Source: an uncultured delta proteobacterium
GTDB taxonomy: Bacteria; Desulfobacterota; Binatia; UBA9968
Reading direction: 5' to 3'
DNA length: 64,000 nucleotides
NCBI GenBank assembly: GCA_963847445.1
Contig: CAWJZV010000030.1
Location: 384,001 to 448,000, forward strand
The notes beneath the pieces are model-generated. The model saw only the letters and a list, made by a program, of their open reading frames with translations, searched no databases and was not told the origin of the DNA. Made by a program: the position numbers and the translations under genes. Positions 5,864-24,077 of the stretch are shown here, in pieces; position 1 is the first letter of the stretch; the number at the start of each line of letters is the position of its first letter.

Positions 5864-6049
5864 GTCGGCAGAGCGGCCGGCCCTGAAAAATAGGCGATAC
5901 CGTCATGATCCGAGTGAACGTGAAGAGACAGTTGTCAGCCTAGAGCGGATTCAATGCCGCGGGCGTCCATCGGGCGCCGACGCGGTGGCTCGTCGAAGCA
6001 TCGCGTAATCGATCGCAGCGAAAATGCCATTGCACGAATGGAGGGCACG

Positions 6050-7003
6050 ATGGCCCGTCTGTACATCACCTATAGCTCGAGGGATCGCGCCCTGGCGTTG
6101 CAGCTGGCCGCGCAGCTCCGTGCCTATGGCCACCAAATCGCAATTGACGTCGATTCGTTGGTGCCGGGAATCGAGTGGCGGCGGGAGCTGATGGACAAAC
6201 TGCTGCTCTGCGACGGCGTCGTGGTGCTACTGACCGCGAACGCGGTCGGCTCCCCGTTCGTGTTCTCCGAGATCGGTTCGGCGCGTGCATCGTCGCGCCG
6301 ATTCCTCATTCCAGTGATTGTCGGCGACCTGCCTATTCACCCGGTGGTTCAGGACATCTACGCCATTCGCATTCCATCGAGCTCAACACGCGAAGTTCGA
6401 AAGGCCGTCAAAAAGATCGACGAGGCGGTTAAGGCTCACCTCCGACGCTCAGCTGCCCTGCTGGGTGTTACCGTGCCCTCAGGATACGAGCACCTGAGCA
6501 CGCAAGTGCGCCGCTTCTGCGAAGACTCTCCGTTCGAGCGCAACGTCTTCGTCATGATGAAATTCCCGGACAAGACGAGCATGCCGGCACGGCATATCCG
6601 GCTCCTCAACGATGTCTGGGAGGTCATCAGCTCCCAGGCGGCCCGCCACGGCCTCGAGGCGAGACGAGCCGACCTGCAGGGCTATCACGACCAGCTTTGG
6701 GAAAACATCTGTGTGTACATCATCGGTTCCAAGTATGGGATCGCGGTCCTGGAGGACGAGGTCGCCAGCGAATTGAATCCCAACGTCGCGCTCGAGTACG
6801 GCTTCATGAAGGCTCTGGACCATCCGGTCGCTCTCATGCGCAGCAGCGGATTCAAGCACAGCCGCGCGGATTTGGCGGGCAAGCTCGCCAACACCTTCGA
6901 CATCGTCGGCGGAGTGCTGCGAAGCGCGAGTCTACGGCAAGCGGTCGGCGCGTGGTTCAAGGAGCAGGGGCTAGCGGCCCGGACGCGGGTCACGCGCCGA
7001 TAG
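6050..7003 (+). CDS. TIR_2 domain fused to a C-terminal nucleoside deoxyribosyltransferase/TIR-like domain
   Basis: N-terminal YITYSSRD...PGIEW...SPFVFSEIG (TIR). C-terminal VFVMMKF...ARRAD...LWENI...NPNVALEYGFMKAL...DLAG. GGAGGG RBS before the ATG at 6050. Confidence 0.75.
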   Translation: MARLYITYSSRDRALALQLAAQLRAYGHQIAIDVDSLVPGIEWRRELMDKLLLCDGVVVLLTANAVGSPFVFSEIGSARASSRRFLIPVIVGDLPIHPVVQDIYAIRIPSSSTREVRKAVKKIDEAVKAHLRRSAALLGVTVPSGYEHLSTQVRRFCEDSPFERNVFVMMKFPDKTSMPARHIRLLNDVWEVISSQAARHGLEARRADLQGYHDQLWENICVYIIGSKYGIAVLEDEVASELNPNVALEYGFMKALDHPVALMRSSGFKHSRADLAGKLANTFDIVGGVLRSASLRQAVGAWFKEQGLAARTRVTRR

Positions 7004-7327
7004 TCAGGACTTTTCAGTTGTGGACTAAGGCACTCGGCGGCGGCGCTGTTACTCCCGCAACTTTAGCCGCTAGCCAGAATCTCTGTTTTTGCCCCCTACT
7101 TTGTCACTCGTGATCTCGGTCAAATCCAGCGCCGGCGTAAGTCTATGGTCGCGCGGAGAAAATGCTCTACGTCTCAGTTCCCAGCAATTGCCAAAAGCAA
7201 GCGAACTTCTGCCGACCGGCACGCTCGTCGACGTCGAGATTTGGCCTCGGCGACGACTCAAAAATTGAGATTTCAGGAGTGAGTACTGCACCATGCACCG
7301 TAGCGTTGAGCAACCGGTAGTCTTGTA

Positions 7328-7343
7328 CGGCATAATTACTGCT
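7328..7343 (+). promoter_or_regulatory. Putative sigma54 -24/-12 promoter
   Basis: cGGCATAATTACTGCt (GG-N10-GC) just upstream of the receiver gene. Confidence 0.45.
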
Positions 7344-7359
7344 TGTTTCACATTCGTGA

Positions 7360-7782
7360 GTGAACACCAACAAAAAAATTCTTATAGTCGAAGACAATGA
7401 GGATTGCCGAGAGCTACAAGCCGTCGTCATCAGGCGTCTAGGGTATGAGGTGATTGAGGCCAACAATGGAGCTGCAGCAATAGAGGAGGCACTCGCTGAG
7501 AAACCCGACCTCATCCTGATGGACCTAAGTATGCCTAAAATGAGTGGTGAGGATGCAATCGTGCAGTTAAAAAATCTACCTTCTACAAGGGAGATACCGG
7601 TTATTATCTGTACGGCTTACGATGCCGGCCGCAGAGTAAACCGAGCCATCGTAGCCGGCGCCGTAGAAGTTTTGCACAAGCCGTTTAAATTCTCCGAGCT
7701 AGAAACCCTGCTGCGAAAGCATATACGAAGCCAGTGCAACGTCGCAATTTCCTTTTCAACCGCGTTAATCTACCACTTGTAA
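7360..7782 (+). CDS. Stand-alone response regulator receiver (CheY/DivK-like)
   Basis: KILIVEDN, PDLILMDLSMP, IICTAY and LHKPF motifs. Confidence 0.92.
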   Translation: MNTNKKILIVEDNEDCRELQAVVIRRLGYEVIEANNGAAAIEEALAEKPDLILMDLSMPKMSGEDAIVQLKNLPSTREIPVIICTAYDAGRRVNRAIVAGAVEVLHKPFKFSELETLLRKHIRSQCNVAISFSTALIYHL

Positions 7783-7880
7783 AATCGATTGGTGAGTCAC
7801 TCCTAATCCCGCCGCTCTTCTCGTAACGAGCCGCGAAAGTCCCCGGTTGAACCTAAGAAAAGCGGCGCGTGTCGGTGCGG

Positions 7881-8237
7881 TTACATCGGAATTCTATTGG
7901 TGTCGATAGTTGGAAAGGTTAGCATAATTCGTTGCGTTGCCTTAGATTTGAACTTGGCGGTTTGTCCCACGGCTGGAGCAGAGTTTATGTTTTTTGCCTC
8001 AGTATTGGGACACCGCTTTATTCTGTGGCACATCCTACTGATCACGGTTACGGAATTGAAGTCTGCGTAGTCCGATAGTTTTTTTCTGAAAAATATGTGA
8101 AGCGGCTGATGCTTTTCCGACCCAAAACTTACAGCAGGAGATGCCAGGAAATCTCCGACACATTCACGACACTCAGGATGGAGACAAAAGGAATAACAGT
8201 GCTCTGAAGCGGGCGTAACTGACATCACTCCAGTCAA
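7881..8237 (-). CDS. Hypothetical low-GC protein
   Basis: 118 aa ORF with AGGAGG RBS shortly before a TTG start; Cys/His-rich N-terminus; no recognisable family. Confidence 0.35.
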   Translation of the reverse strand: MTGVMSVTPASEHCYSFCLHPECRECVGDFLASPAVSFGSEKHQPLHIFFRKKLSDYADFNSVTVISRMCHRIKRCPNTEAKNINSAPAVGQTAKFKSKATQRIMLTFPTIDTNRIPM

Positions 8238-8459
8238 CTGTTACCTCCTTCTATGCGGCCAGTTTATCTCTGTAAGTTCCTTCCGATCTGAGCGTACAGC
8301 ACGCCCCTTAACTGCTTTTCTATCCTAAAAAAATTAGCGGTAAATGCTGCTGAGTTTCCTCTTTGGACCAGCACTTGCGTTGGGCACATATAGACTTGTG
8401 CTCGGGGAGAAAACAGTCCACTCAAATATGCCGGCCAGTGAATCCGATGATTTGTTCTA

Positions 8460-8475
8460 CGGCACTGCTCTTGCC
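8460..8475 (+). promoter_or_regulatory. Putative sigma54 -24/-12 promoter
   Basis: cGGCACtgctcTTGCc matches the YGGCAC-N5-TTGC consensus and lies upstream of the GGDEF gene. Confidence 0.6.
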
Positions 8476-8492
8476 GAAAAGGGAGTCCTACA

Positions 8493-10009
8493 TTGGAAGA
8501 GACCGAGATAATCATTGAGCGAAATGGGGAGTGCGAGAAGTCGCACAGTAGCGAAACTCGTTACCGGCGCCTGTTCGAGGCGGCCAAGGACGGCATCATT
8601 TCTTCGATGCGGATACGGGACGGATCACCGACGTCAACCCATTCCTGGAAGACCTGTTGGGTTATTCTACACCGAGTTGGTCGGCAAGGCGCTCTGGGAG
8701 ATCGGCCCGGTCCAGGACATTACCGCGAGCCAGGACGCCATGCGCAACTTGCAGAAACTGGAATACATCCGTTATGAGAATCTGCCGTTGGTCACCAAAG
8801 CCGGACAGCAAATCCAGGTGGAGTTCGTGAGCAATGTCTACCTCGTCGATCGCTGGCGCGTGATCCAATGCAACGTCCGCGACATCACCGCCCGCAAACA
8901 GGCCGAGGAGGGTCTGCGGACGGCCCATGACGAGCTGCGGCTTCGGTGACGGAACTGCAAAAGCGTGACGAGACCATGAAGTCGCTCATCCGGCTCAATG
9001 ATCTGCTGCAATCGTGCACCACCAAGGCCGAGGCCTACCGGGTGGTGGAGCTGATGGCGAACGAACTCTTCCCCGGGGACAGTGGTGGGTTAGCCATTTT
9101 GCATGCCCCGGATCAAGATTTGGAGACGGTGGCGCGGTGGGGCGACGAGACCGCGCTAGTGCCCAGTTTTTCATTGGAGGATTGTTGGGCGTTGCGGCGC
9201 GGCAAACTCCATGAGGTCATCGATCGACAGGCGGGTTTGGTGTGTAATCATTTTACCCATCAACCGGAGATCGGCTACTTGTGTGTGCCCTTGATGGTCC
9301 AAGGCGGCACGATCGGCCTGTTGTGTCTCACCGGCGCGCCGGAAAAGGTGATCGGTTCGATCACGCGCCAGCGACTGGCCGTGGCCGCGGGCGATACGAT
9401 CAAGCTGTCGTTCCATAATTTGAAACTAAGAGAGGACCTGCGCGAACAGGCCATCCACGATCCGCTGACCGGCCTGTGCAATCGGCGCTATTTGGAAGAA
9501 AGTTTATCGCGCGAGCTGTATCGAGCGGAGCGCGGCAAATCGCCGCTCAGCGTCGTGATGCTCGACCTCGACAACTTCAAGCCCTTCAATGACACCTTCG
9601 GCCACGATGCCGGCGATTCGCTGTTGCGCCAGTTGGGCCAGATGCTTCACGATAACCTGCGCAAGAGCGATATCGCGTGCCGCTATGGGGGCGATGAGTT
9701 CGTCCTGGTGCTGCCCGATTCCTCGGTGGCGGACACCGAGCGCCGCGTGGAGCAGATCCTCACTCTGGTCACAGAACTATCCTACTCAGAATGGCGCTCA
9801 GACCAGACATCACGATATCGGCCGGTATTGCTGGCGCGTCCGAGCACGGGTTCACGGCCGCTCAGATACTCCAGGCCGCGGACAGCGCCATGTATGACGC
9901 CAAGCATGCCGGGGGTGACTGTGTCGTTGTCTACCAGGCGCACAGACAGCTTGAAACAGCTGAAGGTGCCTCGCGCAACATGAGATCCTCGAGTCGCCAA
10001 TACTGCTGA
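8493..10009 (+). CDS. PAS-GAF-GGDEF diguanylate cyclase (several frameshifts)
   Basis: SETRYRRLFEAAKDGI and IQCNVRDIT (PAS); CWALRRG (GAF); DPLTGLCNRRY, RKSD I-site and YGGDEF; the C-terminal AADSAMYDAKHAG is in a shifted frame. Confidence 0.85.
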
Positions 10010-10100
10010 GATCCGGTCGGACCTCCCACTAAGTTCGATCTGGTCATCCATCACAAGGTGGCCAAGCAGGTCGGCTTGACGATTTCGCCCTATGTACTGA
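10000..10100 (+). pseudogene. Relic C-terminus of an ABC_sub_bind-type solute-binding protein
   Basis: Translates as PVGPPTKFDLVIHHKVAKQVGLTISPYVL, matching the recalled family tail PTKFELVINLKTAKQIGLTIPPNVL. Confidence 0.6.
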
Positions 10101-10430
10101 GATTTCCCATTACGAAAGTTGCCTTCGCAGCGGTTAAGACGCGGTCGGAGCACCGACTGCCGGCGCGAGCTGACGACGCTTTGAACGAACGACTAGTCAA
10201 CCCCTTGCTCGATTTGAATTTGGAGATCAGCAACAGTCGATATGCGCGCTTTTGCTGGGCTTCGATCCGCTCGCCGAGGACGAACTCGACGAAATCGACA
10301 CGGCGCTGGACAGCGAACGGACCGACAAGTCAAACGAGTCGTTTTTCAACACCGAGACAAGGTCGCTGCATGGTCCAAGGAGCAAGGGCTAACCGCCCGC
10401 TCGCGGCTCACGCGCCGCTAGTCAGGACTC
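10100..10430 (+). pseudogene. Degenerate copy of the 3' part of the TIR/NDT gene
   Basis: 10370-10429 aligns with 6953-7011 (ggtccaaggagcaagggcta...tcacgcgccgctagtcaggact vs ggttcaaggagcaggggcta...tcacgcgccgatagtcaggact). Confidence 0.55.
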
Positions 10431-10515
10431 GCGCCGTGTACTGCAGCAAATCATTATGGGAAGTCCTGCGCGGTCAACGTATCGTGCGCCTGCGGTCGAA
10501 CTCTACAGACTCAAT

Positions 10516-10596
10516 GCTGAACGTTCCGGGTGTCGATTAACTTCGGCGGCGTTTGTATGATTTGCTAATCGGAACAGTTAAAACACCCGGTTTCGG
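10516..10596 (-). repeat. Atypical attC-like hairpin
   Basis: Minus strand CCGAAAC-cgggtgttttaact...agttaatcgacacccgg-aac-GTTCAGC. Confidence 0.35.
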
Positions 10597-10653
10597 ATCC
10601 CAGCATGACGCCAGTAAAGTGAGAACGGCTGATCGGCACCCGAAACGGCAAAT

Positions 10654-11160
10654 TCATTTCAGTACTGCATCGCGCCACCGCGTTAGAAATGGAACGAGAT
10701 TCACGAACCGAGCGAGAAGCGGGTTAAGGATTTCATACAGGGTGCTCGTCAGCGGATAAGGACGGTTGGTATCGACACCCAGACTCTGGATCACTTCGAG
10801 CGTTTGCTTGGTCTGATTACTGGGCGCGCCGAGAGACCACTCAGGACTGTGCTTCCAGTGATTGGCGCCAGCGTTTATCAGTTCGGCCACGGATCGACCT
10901 GTTCCATGCTTCGGACCGAGTGCGAGAGCTTTGCGCTTGTCAATCTGGCGTCGATTCATTGCAGCTGTGGCGTACGTTTGGCATGCAACGAATCCGAATC
11001 CGGTGATATATTCAATATGATCGAAGATTCCAAACGAATCTGGATCCCAGCTTGCCTGCGCCTCTTTGTCCTGGCGTTCTAGCCTCGTATCAACAAGTGC
11101 CGCCGCAGCCTCAAGAAAAAATCCAGATCGAAGTCTAGGATCATCATCTACTTCCGCACC
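10654..11160 (-). CDS. Hypothetical protein with ANHWKH motif (cassette-like; start uncertain)
   Basis: Open ~165-187 aa frame with FGFVACQTY and INAGANHWKHSPEW; flanked by hairpins. Confidence 0.6.
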   Translation of the reverse strand, partial: GAEVDDDPRLRSGFFLEAAAALVDTRLERQDKEAQASWDPDSFGIFDHIEYITGFGFVACQTYATAAMNRRQIDKRKALALGPKHGTGRSVAELINAGANHWKHSPEWSLGAPSNQTKQTLEVIQSLGVDTNRPYPLTSTLYEILNPLLARFVNLVPFLTRWRDAVLK

Positions 11161-11190
11161 CTTCGCCTTCGAACAGGCAAGCTCCCCTTT

Positions 11191-11225
11191 TGTGCCGACT
11201 CTGTGCGTCCGACACATTGTTATGC
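11191..11225 (-). repeat. attC-like half site/hairpin overlapping the res stop codon
   Basis: Minus strand GCATAAC (contains the TAA stop), then tgtgtcGgac/gtcggcaca stem with one extra G. Confidence 0.4.
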
Positions 11226-13918
11226 TTCCGCTTTGTATTCCCTGAAGCCGCCTGTCAACTCCCGGAACGTCTTTGGTTTGTATTTCTCGAAGCTCGCTTC
11301 GTCCACGTAAACGAAGTCATATTCCACGTCTGCCTGCACCCGGTTGATGTCTTCACACCATTGTCGCAACCGTCGCATCTTCAGCGGCACGTCAAGATCT
11401 TCCTGCCCCTTGGTTTCGGCAATGACAATTCGCTTATCGGATAGCTTGACCAGAAAATCCGGGTAGTAGTTGGATATATCGCCGTCCGCTTTCACGTAGT
11501 CGAGCTTGAAATGCACCGCCAGATAATTCTTGGCGTAGGACACCACATCGTCGCAGTCTTCGAGGAAGCGCGCGAAGCGCAATTCAAGAGGGCTGTCTCC
11601 AATGATGCGGTTAAAGACACTCTTCTTCGGGATCAAGTAGCCCTGATCCTTTGCGACGAAGGGGCGCGTCTGTCGCAGCTTGATTGTGTCACGAATCTCG
11701 GCGTCGCCCTTGTCCTGCACGGTCAGCGCGTTGATTGCCTTTTTAAACGTTTCGATCAGGGTCTTGGTGGCGGCCAGTTCCGACAGATTGCGGAGTGTGT
11801 TGGGGGTGTCCAGGTCCACCGGGCGGTCGAACAGCTGCTCTTGGACAAATGTTTTAACCTTGCCATAGAGCACGTCGTAACCGCTGACCAGGCGCAAGTC
11901 CTTCATCACGGTCTGTGCGAAGAAACCGATCACGCTGCTGTAATCGGCAACGCCACCAGTGTCGAGGACAATGCTATGGTTCACCACGCCGGTAATGCTG
12001 TCTTTGAAAACGATCTCCCGCTGCTCCTCCTCACTGAACTGCCGGTAGGCAACGCGTTGATTCCCCAGCGCGCCCACGTCCAGCGCTGCCAGATTCTTAT
12101 ATTCCCGGTAGATCCTCGGCGTCAGCACGGGAATTTCAATATCCAGCGCGTCGATGTCCTTCTTTTCGTTCTCCTTGTCGATCTCCACCACCAGCGGCGT
12201 CTTAGGCTGCGTGCCTTCGCCCATCGGCTTGCGCTCCAGCACCACGCCTTCCGCCTGAATCGATTCCACGAAATCCATAAAAGCATTCGTGCCGACTACG
12301 CTAACGTATTCCTCCACGTCGGGGTACATCTTGCGCAGGCCGCGCCCGAGGGTTTGTTCAGGCAGGATGTTGCTCTTGGCGGAATAGGCGCGCAGCCCGA
12401 CAATGGTGGTGACGTTGCGCACGTCCCAGTCCTCTTTGAGCACCATCACGGAAATGATCGCCTTGTAAGGGCTGTCCAAGCTGTCAATCGCGTTGGCTTG
12501 CTCGCGCAGCTTATCCAGCTCTTCTTTGCTCTTGCCTGACGTTGATTCGGAAATCTCGCCGTTGCTCTTGGTGTGGATGACCAGCACGGCGTCTTTCAGA
12601 TCGGGGTAGTGGCCTTCAAGATATTCGGCCACCTCGTCGCAATTGCGGGTATCGGCGGTCATCACGAACAGGATCGCCTTCTTGCCGAGCTTTTCGTGTT
12701 CGGTGTAGCTCTTGCGCCACTCGATTACGCCCAGGTGAATATAGTCGGCGTATTTCTCGGTGTACTTGGCGCTCTGGCGCTCCACCAGCTTGGCCCGGCT
12801 CGGAGCATCGGGCAGGACCGGATGCTTCACCACGTTTTGCTTGATAGCTTCCACCAGCGGGTAATCGGCCACGGTCTGCACGAAGATCGCGCCGTTGTTG
12901 TGTTTGGGCGTGGCGGTTACGTCTACTTGCAGAGCGAGCGCCGCCCCTTTCTGCTTCAGGCGGTTGTGAATGTCCTCGATGGACTTGAACCACGCCATGT
13001 CGGGATCGTGGATATGGTGCGCTTCGTCATTGAGCACAATCAGTTCGTCGATGTCGCGCACGATCATAGCCAAGATCGACCTTGCTGTCGGTGGTTCCGC
13101 CGGTTGGGCGCGGCCCCAGGAAATAGTCCATCGTGTTTTCGTCGTCGGCGCGTGGGGATCGACTCATCGCCGGCATAAACGCGATGAATGTTCGTCAGGA
13201 AGATATTGCCCGTGTTGCGGACGACTGCGCACTTCGTCCTGTACGTGCAACGTCAACTGAAAGTCGTCGTGCCAGTTGCGGCCATCGAAGCCGTTGTCGG
13301 GCACAGACCGGATCCTCAAAGAAGATGCGCAGGCCGTCGAAGTCCTTGCGAATGCGGTCGAGCACGATGATGTTCGGCGCGATCACGAGAAAGTTGTGGG
13401 CGAGCTTCGAATCCGGCTCATACAGTTTGTGAAAGAAGCTCCACGCCAACACCAGGCTCAGAACCTTCGTCTTGCCCGTGCCCGTCGCCATCTTCACGAC
13501 CAGGCGGCGCCAGTCTCATCGAACAGGCTCGCCTTTGACTTCACCGGAACGGAATCGAATCGCATCAGGCCGAACTTGTCCTTGAACGGCGTACGCTCCA
13601 TCAAATAGATGATCGTCTCCAACGCCTCGCGTTGGGCGAAGAAGTATGGAACTCGTGCATCAGCGAGCCGGCGTAAGCGGCCGGCGTCAAATGTGGCTCG
13701 TAAAACCACCAGCGCAACAGGCTCTTGCTCGTCGTCGGTCGCGTCTTCATAGCCGCGATCGCGCCACGCCTTTACTTCCTTTCGCAGCATGCGGCACAAG
13801 TGGCGGCATCAGCTGATCGGCCCGCTTTTCGCGCAGACGCTTCGTCGGCGGGGAACCAGCGGATCGATGGATCGAGGATCGCGTGCGGGTCGGTCGGAAA
13901 GCTGGAATGCAGGGCCAT
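11220..13918 (-). CDS. res: Type III restriction enzyme Res subunit (SF2 helicase + PD-(D/E)xK nuclease), frameshifted
   Basis: FAQREALET, KMATGTGKT, DEAHH, TATP, QTLGRGLR and YYPDFLV...ETKG; ATG overlaps the mod stop (TAATG at 13916-13920). Confidence 0.9.
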
Positions 13919-16212
13919 TACTTCTTCCCTCCCAGCGACACATCCACGATCGTCATCGTGTCATTGCCGAAGATGTCCACCACCTTCACCGCGATCTTCA
14001 CGCGCTTCCGTCGCCGTCTCGCGGTAGACGCGGTCAGTTCCAGCGAGCGATCCTTCTTCGTGCGGAAGCTCTGCCATTCGTTCTCGAAGATGTAGTCGCC
14101 CGTCCATTTCTCTTCCGATCTCGCCCGGGTTCAGCGCTTCGTCCTGTCGACGCGGATGATCATTCGCGCTTGCTCTCGAAATCGAAATCGACCGACCAGT
14201 AGTCGATCCAGTCCGTCCAGGTCTTCGTCAGCTTCGCGTTGTCACGACGCCGTTCTTGTCCTTGCTCACCTTGACGATCTGGCCCTTCTCCACGACGATC
14301 TTGCTGCCCTTCTCCTTGAGCGATTCGCCGCGGCGTTGGCGATGGATCCTGCGAGTAGAACACCGAGAAATCGGTAAGCTGCACCGCCACCGTGTTCCCT
14401 TGACCAGCGGCTTCACCTCGATGGCCGCCACGTCGTGGAAGACCACCTGGTTCTTCTCGACCGCCCGCTTGTCGAACACCTCGGCCGGGATGTACTTCGG
14501 CGGAATGTCGATGCCCTTTGGCTTTCGCCTCGTCCAGCACGTTGGGGAACAGGCCCATCTCGAATTCGAAGCCGAGCAGGTCCACCTTGGTGATGCGCTT
14601 CTGCCGGCATTCGAGGATGATCTCCTCGACGAACAGCCGCGTCACCGGCAGGTTGACGGGCCCGACCACCACCATCCGCCCCGCCTTCTTGCCGTGGAAG
14701 GTGGCGAAGCCCGTCGGTCTTCTCGGCCTGGTACGCCTGGAGGATCAGATCGAGAAACGCGGCTTCCTTGGCGTCGAGTTGTTGTCGCTGTTCTTCCTCG
14801 CGCAGGTTCGGGTTCACGCCGACGAATGCTGCCGTTCGTACTTGCCCAGGTTGAGGATTTCAAAGGCGCGGTAGTCCTGGCCTTCGGCCTTCAAGTTCGC
14901 GCTGCACGCCGATCAGGCGTTTGCGCGTGGTGTGTATGGCGAACTTGCCGAGATCGCTGACGATCCACTTGCGGCCCAGCTTCTCGGCCACCGCCGCCGT
15001 CGTGCCGGAGCCGCAGAAGAAATCGGCGACGATGTCGTTTTCGTTGGAGGAAGCGCTTGATGATGCGTTCGAGGAGGGCTTCGGGTTTTTGGGTTGGATA
15101 GTCCGATGTCTTTCGTAGGCTTGTGAGTTGATCGCGTGAAATATCAGCCCAAAGGTTCTGAACGGCATGCCCTTGCAGCTTCATCGAGGTATACTCTTTA
15201 GACGTGGCTCTTCCATTGTTTGGGGAAATCAATACGCCCTTCTGCGCATCAAATTCTTCCATCTTTTCTTTCGTACCGCCCAGCCGTTCGGAGGCGGACT
15301 TATATCCCTTGTACTCATAAATCAGATTCTGGCCGCTAGTGCCGGGATTAATCGATGCTCAAGTCGTGTATCTGCGCGACCGTCTTCATCGATGTTTGTG
15401 AAACGTGCTTTCGATATACTCCTCGGTATACGGCGGATCATTGTTGATTCCAGATGAAGTCATCTGATTTTGCGTAGAAAGATAAATCGTGTCGCGAATT
15501 CATTCGATTCCTGTGCCGATCATTGCGTGCGACGCGTCCGTTTCCAAACTAATCTCGATTCGTAAAATGCTTGATCTCCAAACACTTCGTCGAGCAACCT
15601 GACGAATGTAAACCGTTACTCGCCAATCGCAATGCACATAAATACTCCCATCCTCCGCCAGCAAATCGCGCATCAGGATCAGCCGTTCGTAGATCATGGC
15701 GATGAACGAATCGGCCCCTTGCCCCAGGTGTCGCGGTAGGCGATTTCTTCGAGGATGTTGGGCTTCTTGGTGAAGGTGTCGTCGCCGATTTCGATGTCCA
15801 TGCTGAAATCGGCGCCGACGTCAAAGGGCGGATCGATGTAGATGAGCTTGAGGCCGCCCTGCTTTTCGATCTCCTCGCGCAGCGGGCCGTTCTTCAGCGA
15901 TGAGAGGATGAGCTTGTTGTCGCCCCAGATGAGCTTGTTGGTCCAGCCCTTGAGCTGGCGGCCGCGCTCGTCAAAAACGCAATCCTTGTGGATCGCCGTG
16001 TCCTCTGGCTTCTTCGCGCGCGGCTCATCGACCTGCTCGATCACCTGAAACGGCAGCACGACATTGCAGACCTCGCTGGTCTTGCCGTTCCAGACCAGCT
16101 CCACCTCGCGCTTGTCGTCGAAGAGCAGGAAGCGATACTTGTCCGGCAGCGGCTTGTCGGCCTCCAGAAAGCGGATGATCTCTTGTTGTTCTTGTTCGGT
16201 CAGTCGCGGCAT
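13918..16212 (-). CDS. mod: Type III R-M Mod subunit, N6A/N4C DNA methyltransferase (beta class), heavily frameshifted
   Basis: [38 protein letters not shown] and DFFCGSGTT motifs in successive frames. Confidence 0.9.
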
Positions 16213-16276
16213 GGAATTTTTCTTCTATTCAGGCGAGGGGACGCGATAAAAATATAAAACGTTTCAATCAGACGAC

Positions 16277-17032
16277 CTAAGAGCGCGTAGTGGTTTTAGG
16301 GTCGGCTGAATTGGCGTGTTCGATTTCCAGTTCCTCCTCTTTTCTAAGCGCCTGATCGAATAGGCGATCCATTTCGAAAGTTCTTTGCTGCAACCATTCC
16401 CTGTTACGATTGTAAAGCCATGATAGAATTCTATGGATTTTTCTATAGTAGCTCTCTAGCGATGTGCCAAATGCAACCCCTCTGTCTTGGGTTTCGATAA
16501 ACTCTTTTACTGGCCGAGGCCATTTTGTCCACCGTAGCAGCAGCCGCTTGTCCAAGATAGATTGTGTGAATGTCTCTTTCCCATTCGAATGGAATATGTG
16601 ATTGAAAACGGATCGTAATGAAGGAGGTAATTGCGGAGTTCTTGTAAGATCTGTGATTGAACCGAGTCAACAAACAATTCTTTTACTTTAGCATCATATT
16701 CTGTTTTGACCCCCTTCTCATCTAGCCGGTCCCGATGCACATTGCGCGTGTGATCAACCAAAGTCATTATCGCGGCACAGTAGTTGTGCAGCAACCTTAA
16801 TACAGTTCCATTAAATACTTTTCCTTTTTCTCGTTTTTGAATAGTGAATGGCCAACCCAATAGTTCCTGATGGTGCTAATAATTTTTCGTGAAAATCCTT
16901 AGATTGCGATAATTGCCAAAAAACAAATCGACACGAATAGGTTATTCTTTTGAACTCGGACAGAAGCATCATCCCATCCGAAGACAGAAATGCCTCCCTG
17001 GCAGATTTGTACTCGTCATACGCTGAAGGCAT
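16277..17032 (-). CDS. Low-GC cassette gene with HEPN-like RxxxxH motif (frameshifted into three ORFs)
   Basis: RLLHNYCAAIMTLVDHTR...LQELRNYLLHY; the ATG lies about 10 nt after the attC R' site. Confidence 0.6.
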
Positions 17033-17042
17033 ACTATTTCAG

Positions 17043-17129
17043 TCGAAACGTTGTGCTCTGGGCGGGCCAGCACGGCGGCGAACAATGGTACGACGCTCCC
17101 GGTCCGTCCGCAGCAGCAAAAGGTTAGAG
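17043..17129 (-). repeat. Integron attC recombination site
   Basis: Minus strand CTCTAAC-cttttGCTGCTGCGGAC...GCCCGCCCAGAGC-acaac-GTTTCGA, with AAC/GTT ends, L boxes and an extrahelical G; 87 bp. Confidence 0.75.
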
Positions 17130-17134
17130 CGCAG

Positions 17135-17618
17135 TTATAGGCGGTATTGCGGTAACTCAACGTTTGCTTCATGGCAACTTCAATACGCCTTTGGCCCAGG
17201 CGGCCAATAAGCCAGCAGAAAGCCCGGAGAAGGAAACGACCAGAGTCGATCCGCAATACTTTCGTCTCTGTTCGTCAAGTAGAGTGCGCCCTTAGCTTTC
17301 TAAAAACGCGTCCTTCTCCGGATTGATGCTTCCAGGAGATTTAATATCCAAGCATAGTGAATTTCACCCTGCGTATTCTAATGAAGACCAAACATATGAA
17401 GCGTGGTGGCTAAAGAAAATTCACGCATTTCCTCGGCACCGCTAGGCGGCGTGTGATTAATGGTCATTCCCAGATATCCTTCCTCCAAAAGAAGTGCCAG
17501 CGGATATTGATCGAGGTGGTCTTTATGACGGTCAGCCTCCAAGTCGAATCGCCCGCGAAAGAGAAACCTCTCCGCGTTTCTCGACCTCTTTCAATATTTG
17601 TAGCGCGATACCGTTCAT
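17135..17618 (-). CDS. Cassette-borne hypothetical protein (frameshifted; missed by the ORF track)
   Basis: ATG at 17618 just after GTTAGAGCGC; reads MNGIALQILKEVEKRGEVSLSRAIRL then DHLDQYPLALLLEEGYLGMTINH in a shifted frame. Confidence 0.5.
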
Positions 17619-17625
17619 CGATGCG

Positions 17626-17720
17626 CTCTAACGTATAGCGTTTTATCCCTCAAAGCTTGGAGGCAATCAAGTCGCGGCGATCGCGCCGAAGTCGCGCCAA
17701 GGGGATAAAACGTGTTGGAC
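17626..17720 (-). repeat. attC-like site with offset stem
   Basis: Minus strand GTCCAAC-acgttttatcccc...gggataaaacg-ctatac-GTTAGAG; R'' fits RYYYAAC. Confidence 0.55.
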
Positions 17721-17724
17721 TAAA

Positions 17725-18100
17725 CCGCGGAGCAGCTGTGCAGCGTCGGTTATGGCGGGTTTTGACACGGCGCAGCCACATCGAGTGTGGCGCCTCGTTA
17801 ACGATGGAACGGGCTGTGGGTGAAGGTTGAGATCGGCGCCGATAGTTTTTTCTTGATGGCGACGCTGCCATGCGGCTTCAGAGTCAGTTTTGGGCAGCGC
17901 CCGACACACCCGCGCCAGGCAGGCAGTTCGACAATCACACGAGCAAGATGCGATTGAACCTGGTTCATGAAGAATCCATACAAGGCGAGATTGACAAAGC
18001 TGATAGGTCGCACCCTGTAACATTTAAACTGTTCTGAGATACCGTAAAACGGCATCACAGCCACAGCTGCCAATGTCAAAAGTAAAGATGCGATCCTAAG
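17725..18100 (-). other. Probable degraded or frameshifted cassette ORF (hydrophobic fragments)
   Basis: Fragments such as LAAVAVMPFYGISEQF and LALYGFFM lie between two attC-like sites. Confidence 0.3.
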
Positions 18101-18113
18101 ATCCTAATGACTC

Positions 18114-18198
18114 AACCGAACAGATCGCTAAGAAATGTGCCTTAAATCGCCTCATTCTCGTCCTGCTAAATGGTCATTGCCATAGGGAGAAGTTATTT
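18114..18198 (-). repeat. Degenerate attC-like site
   Basis: Minus strand AAATAAC (overlaps the stop of the upstream gene)-N6-ctatggcaatg ... cattt-cttag-N6-GTTCGGT. Confidence 0.35.
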
Positions 18199-18684
18199 CG
18201 CGAAACCATCCCATGAAGCCGCGAGTCCAAGCAGGAACGTTCCCAAGACGTAGAATAATTTGAACAGGCGATTATGGACATCTTCCGCGAGCCATCCACG
18301 AGACGCTGACTCAACCTCAGGGCCGATCTGCCACAACGTGGCGGCAAGCAACATGAATGCCCCGAACAGTTGCAGCACCATCGTAACATACGCACTCGGC
18401 GGCCCTATATAATACTGCGCAAACCTTCCCAGAAGCACCGCAGCCAGGAGTGCGACAAACACCACGCAGAATGTGCCAATGAAACCTCGCCGCATTGCGG
18501 CGGCCTGCTTTAGATTGGCTTCTGCGAACTGCGCCTCATCGAAGGGAACTGGGTGCGTAATCTTCTTGGCCTTGTGATACTCAACAGCCAGACGATTGAA
18601 GCGTCTAGGCGCAAACAGGAACAGCAGAATGGCTTTCATGCGAAATGCGAGCACATGAAGAACGGTCTCTGACTTGCGATTCAT
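18193..18684 (-). CDS. Hypothetical membrane protein (about 3 TM segments), cassette-like; start uncertain
   Basis: Hydrophobic stretches FIGTFCVVFVALLAAVLLG, VLQLFGAFMLLAATLW and LFYVLGTFLLGLAASW. Confidence 0.65.
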   Translation of the reverse strand: MNRKSETVLHVLAFRMKAILLFLFAPRRFNRLAVEYHKAKKITHPVPFDEAQFAEANLKQAAAMRRGFIGTFCVVFVALLAAVLLGRFAQYYIGPPSAYVTMVLQLFGAFMLLAATLWQIGPEVESASRGWLAEDVHNRLFKLFYVLGTFLLGLAASWDGFAK

Positions 18685-18699
18685 ACTCAAATTTCGCTT

Positions 18700-18790
18700 C
18701 CCACTTTTGCAACGCACGGCTCACATTGGACGCATGGCACCCTAAAAAACTTGCAACCTCCGACGCTTGATATCCGTGCTCCAGCACGGA
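18700..18790 (-). pseudogene. C-terminal HTH relic, likely of a REP-associated tyrosine transposase (RAYT)
   Basis: LEHGYQASEVASFLGCHASNVSRALQK is a short HTH typical of RAYT C-termini; no catalytic domain is present. Confidence 0.45.
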
Positions 18791-18928
18791 ACTTCCGGGG
18801 ACATAATACCAATTTTAATTCGCGTCCAAGCTTTTCCGGCTTCTAACAAAGTTCGCGGTCTTCGTGCCCATCACCGTTTCCCAGTTGCTTCAAACCCGAT
18901 GCAGACGGAGGTCAAGCGTCGAGTGATA

Positions 18929-19168
18929 TTACGTTCTGCTTCCAGGCCCACGGGAAGTCGGTTTATTTTCTTTGGTAATCCTGATGAGAAAACGCAGCGC
19001 TTCATTCACCGCGTCCGCCGTGGGGAACGATTCTGCAACGTCGGGCTCTAGGCGGACCACCGAGCCTCCGAAACTCTTTCGACCAGGGCCCAATCGCCGC
19101 ACCGGCAAACTTTTGAGGTCGTACTCTGGCCGCAGATCATCTTTTATGTCGGGTTTACTCTTCTTCAT
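18929..19168 (-). CDS. brnA: BrnA-like antitoxin
   Basis: DDLRPEYD...VRLEPDVAESFPTADAVNEALRFLI; overlaps the end of brnT. Confidence 0.75.
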   Translation of the reverse strand: MKKSKPDIKDDLRPEYDLKSLPVRRLGPGRKSFGGSVVRLEPDVAESFPTADAVNEALRFLIRITKENKPTSRGPGSRT

Positions 19169-19345
19169 AGGCTTTTCTCTCCGCAGCGGTAACTTCTCTG
19201 GCGCTAATTAACCGCGTAACGTTTCCTCGTTCCGTGTACGACACAATCAATAAACGAGCCGCGACTCGCCTACGATGAGAAAACGATGTTCATCTAGCGA
19301 GTGGCCTGGATCGTAAAAGTCTACGTAGAGCGGATCGTGCGAAAA
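19155..19345 (-). pseudogene. brnT: BrnT (DUF497) toxin, 5' truncated
   Basis: DPLYVDFYDPGHSLDEHRFLIVGES..LLIVSYTERGNVTRLISAREVTAAERKAYEEE*; the N-terminal FEWD motif is absent. Confidence 0.75.
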
Positions 19346-19397
19346 TTACTAATGCGCCGACTATCACGCACTCGATGAATTCTTGTCAAACGACGAA

Positions 19398-19422
19398 GGG
19401 CGGGTTTAAAACCCGCCCCTAC
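19398..19422 (-). repeat. GTAG-family REP
   Basis: gtaggggcgggttttaaacccgccc, near-identical to 34020-34045. Confidence 0.75.
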
Positions 19423-19488
19423 GCTCGGAATTCCTCTTAGGAATCATTTTGCGCCCTTTGTGCTCTTTGTGGCTAAATCATCCCGTCT

Positions 19489-22330
19489 TCACTCTTCATC
19501 CTTCTTGAAATAGTACGCCTCCGGCGCCGGTTTATACGACCGCGGCAGCCAGAGCGGCCGGCGCAGGTTGTCCGGTCCTGGGGCGGGGCGGGTTTTGAGC
19601 ATCCATTTTTTGTAGACCTCGTGGGACTTGTTGGTGTCGACGAAGACATCGCCGTACTTGTCGTCGGGGCCGGGCTTGGTGATGCGCACCTTTTGATGCC
19701 AGCAGTGCTGGCCGCTGATGAAATCGGGCTGCACCGGGAAACGTCAAGTTCTGATGCACGCCGCCGTCTTGCCAGAAGATGCGCGAGGAATCGGGATCGA
19801 CGCTCTTGAACGGCTGGATGCCGTGGATCGTCCGCATCATCCATTTGCCTTCGCCCATTTGTTTCAAGTCCACCAGTGCCGTCGACCAGCGCTCGCCGCC
19901 GGCATCTTCGGCAAGCGCCAGCGGCCGAGATGGTGCGAGCAGGCGATGACGCCGGGCTTGATCCCTTCGGTGACCCAAACCTTATCGATGAAGTAGCCGA
20001 TCTCGGTATGCACTTTCAGCAGATCGCCGGTCTTCACGTCGAAGTTCTGGGCGTCTTGGAATTCAACCACAGCGGATTGCGGTTGGAGATTTCGTACAGC
20101 CACTTGGCGTTGCCCGAGCGCGTGTGAATCAACGTCGGCAAACGAAAGGTCGGCAGCAACAACATTTCGCCGGCATTGATGTCGATATTGTCCGGATGGA
20201 CATGGCTCTTGATGTAGCCGGGGATGGCATGCTCGGGCCACTTCCAATCCTTGATGGTCTTGGAAAAGAATTCGAGCTTGCGCGACGGCGTCGGAAAACC
20301 GACCACCGCTTTGCCGTCGATCTCGACGCCCAGCACCGCGCCATTTTTGGCCACGACCTTGGTCGCGGCATCGACGGTCGAGTCGGCGAGATCGGCGCTT
20401 TTCACCGCGGCTTCGTGGACTTTGTAGACGTTGTCTTCGATCAAAAACGCGCCGTACTTGCGCATGTACTCGAGCGGCTTGAGTCCCTGCTTGGCCGCCG
20501 CTTGCGGCAACCCCGGCACGCTGTTCTCGAAGATCCAGCGATAGTAGTCGTCCACCGTCATCTTCTTGCCCGGGCTCGTAGGGCGACTCAAAATACTTAC
20601 GGATGCCGAGGCTGCCGTCGGGATCGACGCGCCAGGACAGTTCGATCCAGAATTCGTCTTCCTCCCACACCTCGCCGATGCCGGCGGCTTCATGCGCCTC
20701 GTAGGTGGTGTTGAATTTCTTGCCCTGCTTCTCCAGCGCGACGCGCAAAATCGGCTGGCGAAAGCCAATCCAGCGCGCCGCCTGGGTTTCCTGGCTCATC
20801 AAGTCATGGCGCTCGGAAGCCATGGCCCATCGGCAAGACGTAATCGGCGAACCAGGCGGTCTCGCTCCAGGTCGGCGTCAAACAAGCGTGGCGCTCGACC
20901 TTGCTTTCATCCGAAAGCATCTCGATCCAACTCATGCCGTCGGGATTGGTCCACACCGGGTTGTAGACCCGGGTGAAATACATCGCCAACTTGCCGCGCC
21001 CTTCCTTGAGAAAATGCGGCAGCAAGAAAGCTCATCTCGAAAAACGCCAGCGGAAACTCTTTGGGAATCAGCAGCTCGTTCCAGACTTTCGACGGCGGCG
21101 GCATCAGCGGCGGCGCCGGGAATGAATTTATTCGCCGCATTGGGCGCGGTGCCGCCGACCGTGCCGACGGCGCCGACTAAGACGGAGAGAAATTGCAGAG
21201 CGCGGGCGACTTGCCAGCCGCCGAGGTTGCCGGCCGCGGTGTTGCGCCAGACATGGGAAGCGAACGCCGAACCGGCCTTGGCGACCTCGTGCGCCACTTC
21301 GACGATCACGGCCGGCTCGACGCCGGCTTCCTTGGCGGCGAACTCCGGCGTGTACTGGCCATAGACTTCTTTGAGCACGGCGACGAAGCTGGAAAACTTA
21401 TGCGGCTGGTCGGGATGTTCTTCGCGCAAATAATCTTCCCAGTTGACCCAGCGGCGCAAAAATTCGCGGTCGAAGAGTTCCTCCTGCAGCAAGACATTGC
21501 ACATCGCCAGCAGCACGGCGGACTCGCTGCCCGGCCAGGTCGACATCCAGTAATCCGCCTTGGACGCGGTGTTGGAAAGCCGCGTGTCGATGACGCAGAT
21601 CTTGGTGCCGGCTTCCTTGGCTTCGATGATCCGCTGCGCATGAGGATTGAAATAGTGGCCGGTCTCCAGGTGCGAACTCAGGAGCAAAATGAAACGCGCG
21701 TTGGCGTGGTCCGGCGACGGCCGGTCGATGCCGGACCAGAAGGCGTAGCCGGCGCGGGCGCCGGCGGAGCACACGTTGGTATGGCTATTGTGGCCGTCGA
21801 TGCCCCAGGAATGAAGGATGCGCTGATGGTAGAGCAACTCATGGCCGGGGCGGCCGACATGGTACATGATCTCGTTGCGCCGCTCTTCTTGCAGCGCCTT
21901 GCGCACGCGGCCGGCGATATCGTCGAGCACTTCATCCCAACTGACGCGCTCCCACTTGCCTTCGCCGCGCTTGCCGACACGCTTCAACGGATAACGAATA
22001 CGCTCGGGATCGTTGACTTGATTGAGCGTCGCCGGCCCTTTGGCGCAGTTGCGGCCGCGGCTGCCGGGATGCTCGGGATTGCCCTCGAAGCGGCGAATCT
22101 TGTTGGTGTCTTTTTCGACCACAGCAACCAGGCCGCAAGCGGCTTCGCAATTGAAGCAAATCGTCGGGATAATCCGGCAGTGCTTCTCGACCTTGCGCGG
22201 CCACTTGCGCCGTGTCGTACTCCATCCAGTCGTCCCACTTTTCCACCGGCGGATAATTGACCAAACCGTTCGGCTCCAGTTTCAAAGCATCGGGATTTAG
22301 CGGTATCGCGCGTCAGATTCACTTCATTAT
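19489..22330 (-). CDS. Molybdopterin (bis-MGD) oxidoreductase catalytic subunit, Psr/Arr/Ttr-like, frameshifted
   Basis: CFNCEAAC...NCAKG FS0 cluster, YPLKRVGKRGEGKWERVSWDE, HTNVCS, ETAWFADYVLP, GFPTPSRKLEF and a molydop-binding tail. Confidence 0.9.
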
Positions 22331-22344
22331 GTCAAATCCTTCGT

Positions 22345-22390
22345 CGAATCCGACTTCTGATTTCTGACTTCTGGTTCCGACTTCTGGCTT
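22345..22390. repeat. Heptamer tandem repeat (TTCTGAC/TCCGACT type)
   Basis: tccgacttctgatttctgacttctggttccgacttctgg. Confidence 0.6.
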
Positions 22391-22393
22391 GCA

Positions 22394-23918
22394 TCAGCTC
22401 AACGGCACAGCCTGCCCGGCTCTGATCCACAGATGTTCGTACATCCACAGACCGAATAGCGCCAGCAAGGCGGCGGCGATATTCGGTATCAGCGAACTGA
22501 TCGGCCATAGCACGAGAATAATCGGCACAAGGCTGCCGAGACCGACAACGAAGAGCCAAAACGATTTCTTCAATGGCCCGCGCAACAGGATCTCGCCGGC
22601 GCGCACGGCGTCTTCGGCGCCATGCTTCATGAACAGCTCGCCGAAGATCATCGCCAGGCTCAAACACAACGAGATCACCAACAGATGGCCGAGCCAGCTG
22701 AACAACGGCAGCGTGACACCGAGCACACTGCCGATCAGCGTCAACGTCGCCGCGCCGGCGGCGATCGCTTGAATCAACAAATGCCAAAACAAGCAGCGGA
22801 CTTTGCCAAAAATCCCGGCCGCGCGCCTGGGCGAAGAGAAAAGCCGAATAGCCTGCCGAAGCCACGGCAAAGGTCGCCGTCGCCCACACCAACAGCGGAT
22901 GGATGCCGTTGCCCGTAAGGATCAATGCCAACCAGACCGACAAGAGAATGCCGAAGATCGTCAACACGTAGCCGCCCAGAACCAACCAGGAGTTAAGGTT
23001 CGGCTTGGTCAGAATGTAAAAGAAGCGGCCGGGCTTTTTGAGATCGAGCACCAGCAGCACCATGGTCGCGGCGAGAAAAATCAACGAGACCAGCGGACTG
23101 ACCAAACTCAACACGCCGGCGTCCTGCTCGAAGCCCATGTTCAAAAACAGCGCCGACAACAGCAGCACGCCGGCGGATATCGATTTGGTCCACAGATAAG
23201 ACGCGATCTTCTTACCCCAAGGCGTCGCATGGGGCACGTCGTAGACTTCCCGCGCCGCGCCCGGAGTGGAGCGCTCGCCGTCACGCATCTTGAGAGCGTA
23301 GAGATCTTCACCGGGCGCCTTGTCGGCCCAGAAGTGGCTCTCCTGCGGCTCCATCATGGTCGGATTCAACAGATCGCCGTCGACGCCGGCATAGAAAAGT
23401 TTCGGCTTGGTGCCCTTCTCGGCTTTGCGCACGCTGACTTTTTCCATGGCGATGCGCTTGCTGATCGTGCTGTTGGCATCGTCGAGATCGCCGGAAAGAA
23501 TCGCCTGGGTCGGGCAGACAACTTCGCAGGCCGGCTTGTAGCCCATCTCGACGCGCGAAGCATCGAAGTTGCATTTGGCCGCGGTGTTGCGCTCGGGATC
23601 GATGTAAAGCGCGTCGTAGGGGCAAGCCTGCATGCAGGATTGGCAACCGATGCAGCGCTCATTGTCGAAGTCGACGATACCGTCGGGACGGCGAAACAGC
23701 GCCACCGTCGGGCAGATCTCGATGCACGGCGCGTCGTCGCAGTGATTGCAGCGCAGCACGGCAAAATGGCGCCGGGTATCGGGATAGACGCCCTTCTCGA
23801 CGTACTTGACCCAAGTGCGGTTAACGCCCAGCGGGATGTCGTGCTCCTCTTTACAGGCCACCGTACAGGCGTGGCAGCCGATGCAGCGATGCTGATCGAT
23901 GAGAAATCCGTAACGCAT
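22394..23918 (-). CDS. 4Fe-4S dicluster (NrfC/DmsB-like) fused to NrfD/PsrC membrane anchor; frameshift near 22790
   Basis: CIGCHACTVAC, CNHCDDAPC, CIGCQSCMQACP, then PWGKKIASYLW, DLKKPGRF, YSAFLF and TM helices. Confidence 0.9.
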
Positions 23919-24077
23919 TATAAACCTTTCCGATCAACTAACTTAACTATCTATAATGATTAAAAGTTTCGACTCTGATAGCAGGAATGTTCAGGCGGGG
24001 TCAATTGAATGGCGAAAAAATCTTAGGATTATTAGCGCGCAAAGAACGCAAAATAGATCCTAAGCGGAGATCCGAAC

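Follow-up and report, generated by a model that had tools for sequence, protein, structure and literature searches.

Do the small open reading frames (ORFs) between positions 16260 and 18930 of this DNA form an array of integron cassettes and, if they do, on what does such an array stand in a genome in which no integron integrase is found? The window considered here, i.e., the whole stretch of 64,000 nucleotides (nt) that was analysed, is G000:C30:384001-448000, from the genome of an uncultured delta proteobacterium (G000; 7.19 Mb in 48 contigs, 91.8% complete, guanine plus cytosine (GC) content 57.4%). A preliminary description, made from the letters alone, had proposed an integrase-less array of 3-4 cassettes of possibly anti-phage function inside a defence-like island. 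An array of this kind is known as a CALIN, a cluster of attC sites lacking integron integrase, with at least two attC sites within 4 kb on one strand.

With moderate confidence, we read 16260-17631 as a short, integrase-less and degenerate stub of one or two cassettes (17631-17049 and 17048-16260, minus strand) that stands on the oriIS hairpin of a truncated insertion sequence (IS) of the IS91 family. The observations that carry this reading are the identity of the IS remnant, a rule that holds across the genus, a strand-specific hairpin together with the best attC-model match at 16254-16324, and the island in which the region lies. The features on which the argument turns are the following, in the order in which the minus strand is read (lengths of proteins in amino acids, aa):

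17628-18011, minus strand: right-end (oriIS) remnant of an IS91-family element of ~2.53 kb, recognised by homology to full copies
17378-17618, minus strand: ORF of the first unit, 84-aa family, with one frameshift near 17540
17042-17129, minus strand: the attC of the preliminary description, weak, which would end a 583-nt unit (17631-17049)
16277-17032, minus strand: ORF of the second unit, 252-aa family, in fragments 16811-17032, 16507-16860 and 16277-16555 in three frames
16254-16324, minus strand: best attC-like site, at the end of a 789-nt unit (17048-16260) and extending over the last 16 codons and stop codon of its ORF

The stretch 17628-18011 is the right-end remnant of an IS91-family element. 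It is multi-copy in the genus, and the window retains only the last 384 nt, in which we recognised an 11-bp hairpin stem (17639-17649 / 17702-17712) as well as the subterminal repeat GCGGTTTA; its end, ...CTATAC, runs into GTTAG. Compared with the right ends of full copies, the remnant is 71-80% identical to six of them over 287-394 nt, and two others match over shorter lengths (L022-L029). These eight copies, each of ~2.53 kb, start with GTTGAACTAAACCGC, end with ...GGGATAAAACGCTATAC and lie in unrelated flanks, where no target duplication was seen; the end CTATAC is followed by GTTA, GTTG or GCTA in 9/9 copies. Each full copy encodes an IS91 transposase (Zn_Tnp_IS91 and Y2_Tnp; NF033538 transpos_IS91, 264 bits against a cut-off of 125) and, upstream of it, a tyrosine recombinase of 278 aa (Phage_integrase, E 2.3e-39). 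The best NCBIfam match of the latter is XerA-type (197 bits), and its 161 bits against the integron integrase model TIGR02249 are below the cut-off. An oriIS with a subterminal palindrome, an adjoining target tetranucleotide and no target duplication were thus all found, in agreement with the description of the IS91 family, which also includes single-stranded circles whose ends are joined (PMC13181058). The window holds no transposase gene, and homology to the full copies starts at 18011; because the Y2 HUH transposase gene is missing, we speak of the remnant of a family member and not of a member. It also follows from the identity of 17628-18011 that GTTAG at 17628-17632 is the junction between IS end and flank.

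For the attC sites themselves, we used a home-made model, R2, in place of the attC model of IntegronFinder. Its seed arrays stand beside true intI genes in five congeners (G014, G015, G006, G012 and G019), with the seed-site consensus GCCTAAC...GGCTTGAG...CTCAGCC...GTTAGGC. A first model, R1, was made from 13 sites with a hand-set structure that pairs 74.6% of the cells, RNAalifold on the MAFFT alignment having given no structure. R1 recovers held-out sites at 18-23 bits, and its 29 matches at E up to 0.1 became R2, which finds 19 sites in G000 at E up to 1, with 27.7-53 bits. Among the fold controls, 8 of 10 attCs had z of -2.39 or lower and two were near 0. A scan for motif plus fold recovers the attCs of the genus as well, together with many chance sites.

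Integrons are native to this genus. The integron integrase IntI (~299-471 bits) is found in 9 of 31 genomes, a count that includes the unpublished G005. G000, at 91.8% completeness, yielded none: its best match to TIGR02249 reaches 102 bits against a cut-off of 265, and no array with a nearby intI, the mark of a complete integron, was found in it. The absence of intI noted earlier for the window thus extends to the genome as assembled. G000 does hold integrase-less arrays elsewhere. About 127 kb upstream of the window, on the same contig, C30:254251-273287 comprises 22 minus-strand sites of 18-53 bits (filters off) in 19 kb, spaced ~600-1000 nt apart and with a GC content of 56.1%; scores of 18-22 bits occur among these sites. 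Two smaller clusters were seen, one of 3 sites at C2:4767-6301 and one of 2 sites at C47:4205-5026. As a separate observation, the integrons of the genus appear to be of the 'inverted integrase' type, with attC top strands co-directional with intI and downstream of it (L035 = G014:C15:183000-202999; L034 = G015:C4), and 9-nt repeats GTTCAANNC occur near intI (L035 2433-2487 and 3246-3300; L034 3726-3764, 4205-4263 and 4527-4583).

The link between the IS end and cassettes becomes visible when the genus is considered as a whole. We located 30 loci with the IS hairpin end and scanned 27 of them with R2, setting aside that of the window and two in G005. Twelve matches were obtained in 11 of the 27 loci, all of them downstream of the IS end by 318-930 nt and on its strand; upstream of the IS end, or on the opposite strand, the 27 loci gave no match. 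One of the 11 positive loci is in G000 itself (C48), and in relatives the downstream units are closed by canonical attCs of the genus, which score up to 41.5 bits. The rule for the genus is that attC-bearing units come after this IS91-family end and share its strand. The window fits it, with two same-strand R2 matches ~500 and ~1300 nt downstream of its IS end, each after an ORF. Among titles and abstracts on IS91 with attC and tyrosine recombinases, on upstream integrases and on oriIS/terIS, none stated such a positional rule, which is not proof of absence.

The hairpin at the IS end is itself attC-like, with an R''-like GTCCAAC, the 11-bp stem and GTTAG; with filters off, R2 scores 6 of 8 IS ends at 10.4-13.9 bits as full-length attC-like matches. 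One may ask whether the element sits at the AA|C of an attC inverse core; such an insertion point is not seen in this genus. All short copies of the hairpin in the genus carry IS-internal sequence upstream or are 3' fragments of the hairpin, and at the eight left junctions of the full copies R2 with filters off found no attC remainder, none of them scoring; for these reasons, we assign the hairpin to the element in this genus. It was also observed that the 109-nt hairpin module (17628-17736) is 97% identical to G023:C560 and 88% to G018:C10, and that the spacer 17737-18011 is, by our estimate, closer to G018:C10 (~77%) than to G023:C560 (~66%). Since these identities rank the two in opposite order, the hairpin module and the body of the element differ in their nearest relatives.

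Both units behind the IS end carry real coding sequence. The ORF of the first unit belongs to an 84-aa family: its 54-aa piece (17378-17542) is 67-84% identical to P0005-P0009 (83-90 aa), and the N-terminus MNGIAL from the ATG at 17618 matches P0008. In the second unit, the three fragments of 16277-17032 align, by our reading, with the 252-aa P0001, the middle one at 61% identity. The earlier remark that one cassette ORF is invisible in the ORF track is borne out, the ORF being split by frameshift. Neither family could be given a name: P0001 had no match in Pfam, NCBIfam or PADLOC, P0008 none in Pfam and the window's 54-aa fragment none in PADLOC, and the ESM Atlas returned only unnamed clusters for the two. 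Neither 400 genomes of the phylum nor 122 further genomes of the order yielded a member of the 84-aa family, and no public sequencing run among those searched holds half or more of the words of the stretch. Contigs from four runs of other samples cover it in patches and show no excised circles, which contigs would not reveal in any case. The two families are real but sporadic and of low GC content. As the preliminary description had it, the units are co-oriented, with all ORFs on the minus strand, and low in GC (42.7% in 16260-17049 and 51.0% in 17050-17631, where the genome as a whole has 57.4%).

Which of the two candidate sites can be trusted? R2 places 16254-16324 (minus strand) first among the 20 matches at E up to 10 obtained window-wide with filters off (128 kb of strands), with 17.5 bits, E 0.041 in 16 kb and E 0.17 window-wide. 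Folding of 16250-16328 gave z -3.16 on the plus strand (1 of 200 shuffles) and z -0.10 on the minus strand; the plus strand is the expected bottom strand of a minus-oriented cassette, and the hairpin is specific to it. By our scaling, the chance expectation of a match of at least 17.5 bits in 1.5 kb of one strand is ~0.002, given the prior set by the IS end in this genus, and therefore we take 16254-16324 as probably a real attC site. The site that had been described as a canonical attC, 17042-17129, fares less well. Its span 17043-17129 is indeed bounded by AAC and GTT, and the label 'canonical' has to be withdrawn, since R2 scores it at 12.0 bits (E 0.55 in 16 kb) and ranks it sixth of 20 window-wide (E 2.2); it is possibly a real attC site. 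The two matches lie 788 nt apart on the minus strand, both sub-threshold, and folding backs the lower one only. From 17130 to 19400, R2 had no match up to E 10.

The boundaries of the units offer a further line of evidence. GCGCTCTAAC at 17123-17132 recurs as its exact reverse complement at 17623-17632 on the plus strand, so that the start of the first unit, G|TTAGAGCGC, complements the inverse core GCGCTCTAAC in 10/10 bases; the inverted repeat extends imperfectly to 39 nt at 72%. The cassette rule, by which an inverse core (RYYYAAC) pairs with the first bases of the unit (G|TTRRRY), thus holds in the first unit. In the second it holds with a one-base slip, the start GTTTCGA matching the inverse core ATCGAAC only with one A dropped. 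The start codons, ATG at 17618 and 17032, follow the G|TT points by 13 and 16 nt, in agreement with the earlier remark that they lie near the core sites. The exact 10-nt reverse complement had been offered as the signature of a once-circular cassette. The repeat exists; its GTTAG half is the IS end/flank junction, and by our arithmetic ~1.7 such pairs within 600 nt are expected per 3 kb by chance, so the repeat by itself is not rare. Beside these points, we observed that 5 of the window's 16 AACGTT hexamers lie inside 16258-19223 and that two of them are the G|TT points themselves (17047-17052 and 16258-16263).

The same boundaries could be read in another way, namely that the units are non-autonomous passengers of the IS91 element, moved as single-stranded circles by the Y2 transposase or the Xer-like recombinase, and are not cassettes of IntI. 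Each unit starts with GTTN, contains a short inverted repeat as well as a subterminal hairpin, and has GTTN as its target, just as in the full element, which starts with GTTGAACTAAACCGC, has the complement GCGGTTTAGTYCAAC ~100 nt from its right end, then the hairpin, and then CTATAC|GTTA; subterminal palindromes, the oriIS tetranucleotide and single-stranded circles are the tools of the IS91 family (PMC13181058). The terminal inverted repeat of the first unit consists of the 10 nt plus an inner second block of 9 of 10 nt at equal spacing, which resembles a transposon end and is unpredicted by cassette logic, and the 10.4-13.9 bits of the 6 of 8 IS ends are the range in which 17042-17129 scores. 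On the other hand, no second copy of either unit was found in G000 or in the 40 relatives searched, the unit hairpins are unlike the IS hairpin in sequence, the window has neither the full element nor an IS91 transposase, and the downstream units of relatives end in canonical genus attCs. Movement as IS91 passengers accordingly seems to us quite improbable.

A more serious challenge to the cassette stub is that there are no cassettes here at all, only ordinary horizontally acquired DNA and IS debris in a recombination hot spot, with attC-like motifs that arose by chance in a region picked by eye. Besides the inner repeat block just described, a number of results weigh against the stub. Six R2 matches of at least 12 bits occur in the window, and some pair of them within 900 nt on one strand has a chance of ~0.2 by our arithmetic; 12.0 bits is the level of background, that of five unrelated places in the window; four unrelated places score between 17042-17129 and the best site, and the reader's site, folded as 17040-17135, behaves like its shuffles (z -0.40 on the plus strand, +1.07 on the minus strand). 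The E-values of R2 are rough, the model being home-made from 29 sites. By our scaling, 17.5 bits corresponds to E ~18 for the genome, and 16254-16324 is not among the whole-genome R2 matches at E up to 1. R1 with default filters had no match in the window, and the strict motif-plus-fold scan returned 8 sites in the array of G014, one in the window (54227-54374, coding) and none in the region. The genome yielded no IntI. At 63 of 65 loci, homologues of the 252-aa ORF are not borne on cassettes; R2, a model built on sites of this genus, matches near its distant relatives at 2 of 65 (E 0.11-0.27). Neither unit occurs in any relative, so that no presence or absence of cassette size is visible and mobility is unseen. 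Finally, truncated genes of mobile elements account for all other boundaries in the region.

What chance leaves unexplained is that the best R2 match and a strand-specific hairpin (z -3.16) coincide just after an ORF, on the strand that the IS end predicts. It also does not account for the downstream-only rule in 11 of 27 loci of relatives, nor for the 10/10 complement between the inverse core and a unit start that is fixed independently by the end of IS homology. We therefore regard the wholly cassette-free interpretation as rather unlikely, if a real contender, and retain the stub of one or two cassettes on the IS91-family end.

Upstream of the IS remnant, the picture is different. The remaining features there are:

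18193-18684, minus strand: 163-aa hydrophobic ORF without family match, with no attC-like site after it
18700-18789, minus strand: 3' tail of an IS200-like (Y1) transposase gene, ~30 codons, a fragment and not a gene start
18929-19168, minus strand: 79-aa ORF without family match
19155-19250, minus strand: tail of a BrnT-type toxin gene, 31 aa (PF04365 BrnT_toxin, E 1.7e-4, below the curated cut-off)

The stretch 18012-19400 is debris and not a set of cassettes, namely an orphan membrane ORF and the two tails, IS200-like and BrnT. Parts of 18193-18684 are also present on contigs from other metagenomes, with 1-10 differing letters per 151-263 nt. The tail at 18700-18789 matches the C-terminus of frames of 290-307 aa in G007 and G019, of which the G007 frame is Y1_Tnp in Pfam (E 3.6e-12). 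The homology of G004 and G015:C2 to the module of the 79-aa ORF ends at 18790, beside this tail; a perfect 7-bp palindrome, CCGTGCT GG AGCACGG (18775-18790, minus strand), marks both the start of the tail and the end of that homology. The name BrnA was considered for the 79-aa ORF and dropped, as it has no family match, and its relatives in G004 and G015:C2 have a different upstream gene. In G015, the module is cassette-borne: in G015:C2 (L045 = G015:C2:194000-206000), it lies with other genes between attC-model matches at 4930-4990 and 7724-7781 (minus strand, 29.5 and 35.4 bits).

The count of 3-4 cassettes therefore does not stand, 17628-18011 being the IS91-family remnant and 18700-18789 the IS200-like tail. 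Of the integrase-less array, one or two units behind the IS end survive, standing where cassettes stand in 11 of 27 related loci, and the upstream units turn out to be truncated genes. Overall, the preliminary description was partly confirmed in its observations and partly supported in its interpretation.

The region occupies one end of a variable island, recognised by synteny with congeners:

5866-19424: variable island with recQ (4754-5863) on one side and a molybdopterin oxidoreductase operon (from 19489) on the other

This 13.5-kb island is absent from two congeners. In G014, window position 5865 is joined to 19425 across 116 nt, and in G015, 5871 is joined to 19500 across 260 nt; G004 carries a different, shorter piece of DNA at this locus, which shares with the window only the end of the TIR-domain gene and the 79-aa ORF module. 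By Pfam and PADLOC matches, the island contains a TIR-domain gene (5954-7003), signalling genes and a type III restriction-modification pair (16212 down to 11220). The low-GC stretch lies in it too, with a GC content of 40-55% in 16260-19400, flanks of 58-63% and a genome value of 57.4%. 'Defence-like island' is a fair label because the TIR-domain gene and the restriction-modification pair are present. The proposed anti-phage function of the cassettes has no support beyond this neighbourhood, PADLOC and the other searches having no match for the two ORFs. Insertion at a tRNA gene was ruled out, as the window contains no tRNA and the repeat at 19397-19483 is an abundant short element; the Rfam search of 12000-24000 gave no meaningful match. 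That repeat, of ~80 nt and with the hairpin GGGGCGGGTTTTAAACCCGCCC, stands at the right edge of the island. It supplies ~70 of 76 BLAST rows within G000, and its 26-nt core recurs at 96-100% identity in other families of the order.

The quality of the assembly has a bearing on both ORFs and sites. The oxidoreductase gene (window 19360-21228) differs from that of G004, where the frame is open over 578 aa, by nine single-base indels per 1.87 kb, i.e., about one single-base indel per 200 nt of assembly. At this rate split ORFs are to be expected, and the frameshifts of the window are probably uncorrected errors of a long-read assembly; indels likewise break up the two small ORFs and, at 16212-11220, the type III mod and res genes. 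A contig from a soil metagenome that is near-identical to 16865-17015 differs from it by two gaps. Low attC scores may arise in the same manner, since assembly indels can depress them.

How might the stub have come about? We suppose that circular cassettes were attached at the G|TT beside the IS hairpin by an integron integrase that acted in a donor genome or an ancestral one; this hairpin may mimic attC through its R''-like GTCCAAC, 11-bp stem and GTTAG. The joined piece would then have become fixed within the variable defence island, and it is presumably static in G000 now because no integrase is found in the genome. Transcription of its genes would depend on a promoter further upstream; on that strand, 19389-19360 gives the only sigma-70-like match. 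A bolder version would make the right-end hairpin of the IS91/Xer element a working docking site for cassettes, with either an IntI acting in trans or the Xer-like recombinase of the element itself to join them, so that the IS would serve as a mobile platform that needs no resident integron, and stubs such as the present one would be leftovers of a decayed platform. We consider this version unlikely.

For the window itself, the result mostly serves as a correction: the attC that had been named is not a canonical one, IS debris makes up half of the proposed array, and assembly errors are the probable cause of the split ORFs. Of more lasting value is the rule seen in the genus, in which the hairpin end of an element with IS91 transposase and tyrosine recombinase is followed, and never preceded, by attC units on the same strand. 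If this end recruits or homes to cassettes, it would form a link between rolling-circle IS and the traffic of integron cassettes, and would also explain how cassettes come to lie in places such as the defence island of a genome with no detected integrase.

It is instructive to set the locus beside known systems. With a CALIN it shares co-oriented, small and promoterless ORFs, a putative hairpin site with AAC...GTT ends after each of them, and the lack of any intI found in the genome; the same genome holds true CALINs elsewhere. It differs in having at most two sites, which at 12.0 and 17.5 bits fall far below most of the true sites of the genome (18-53 bits), and in that an IS91-family end heads the array and the upstream 'cassettes' are gene fragments. 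ISShvi3 resembles it as an IS91-like element directly adjoining an attC site within a cassette array; it is a single case from another phylum and the one case description met in the literature searched, and the passage that describes it reports no rule of position or strand (PMC9229058). Within the IS91 family (IS91, IS801, IS1294; Y2 HUH, rolling-circle), the likeness lies in the IS91 transposase of the relatives and in a right end with a subterminal palindrome followed by G(T/C)T(A/G) (PMC13181058). The element of this genus differs in carrying an upstream Xer-like tyrosine recombinase of 278 aa. Some IS91 members in ISfinder do carry an upstream tyrosine recombinase. Further differences are a right end that is attC-like and then followed by cassettes and, in the window, the survival of the last 384 nt only. 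IS1111-attC elements and class C-attC group II introns, which work with a DEDD transposase and a reverse transcriptase, respectively, are located inside attC sites. Like the element considered here, they are mobile elements specialised on the attC sites of integrons (both are named in PMC9229058). Their enzymes are different ones, and in the present genus the attC-model matches lie 318-930 nt downstream of the end of the element.

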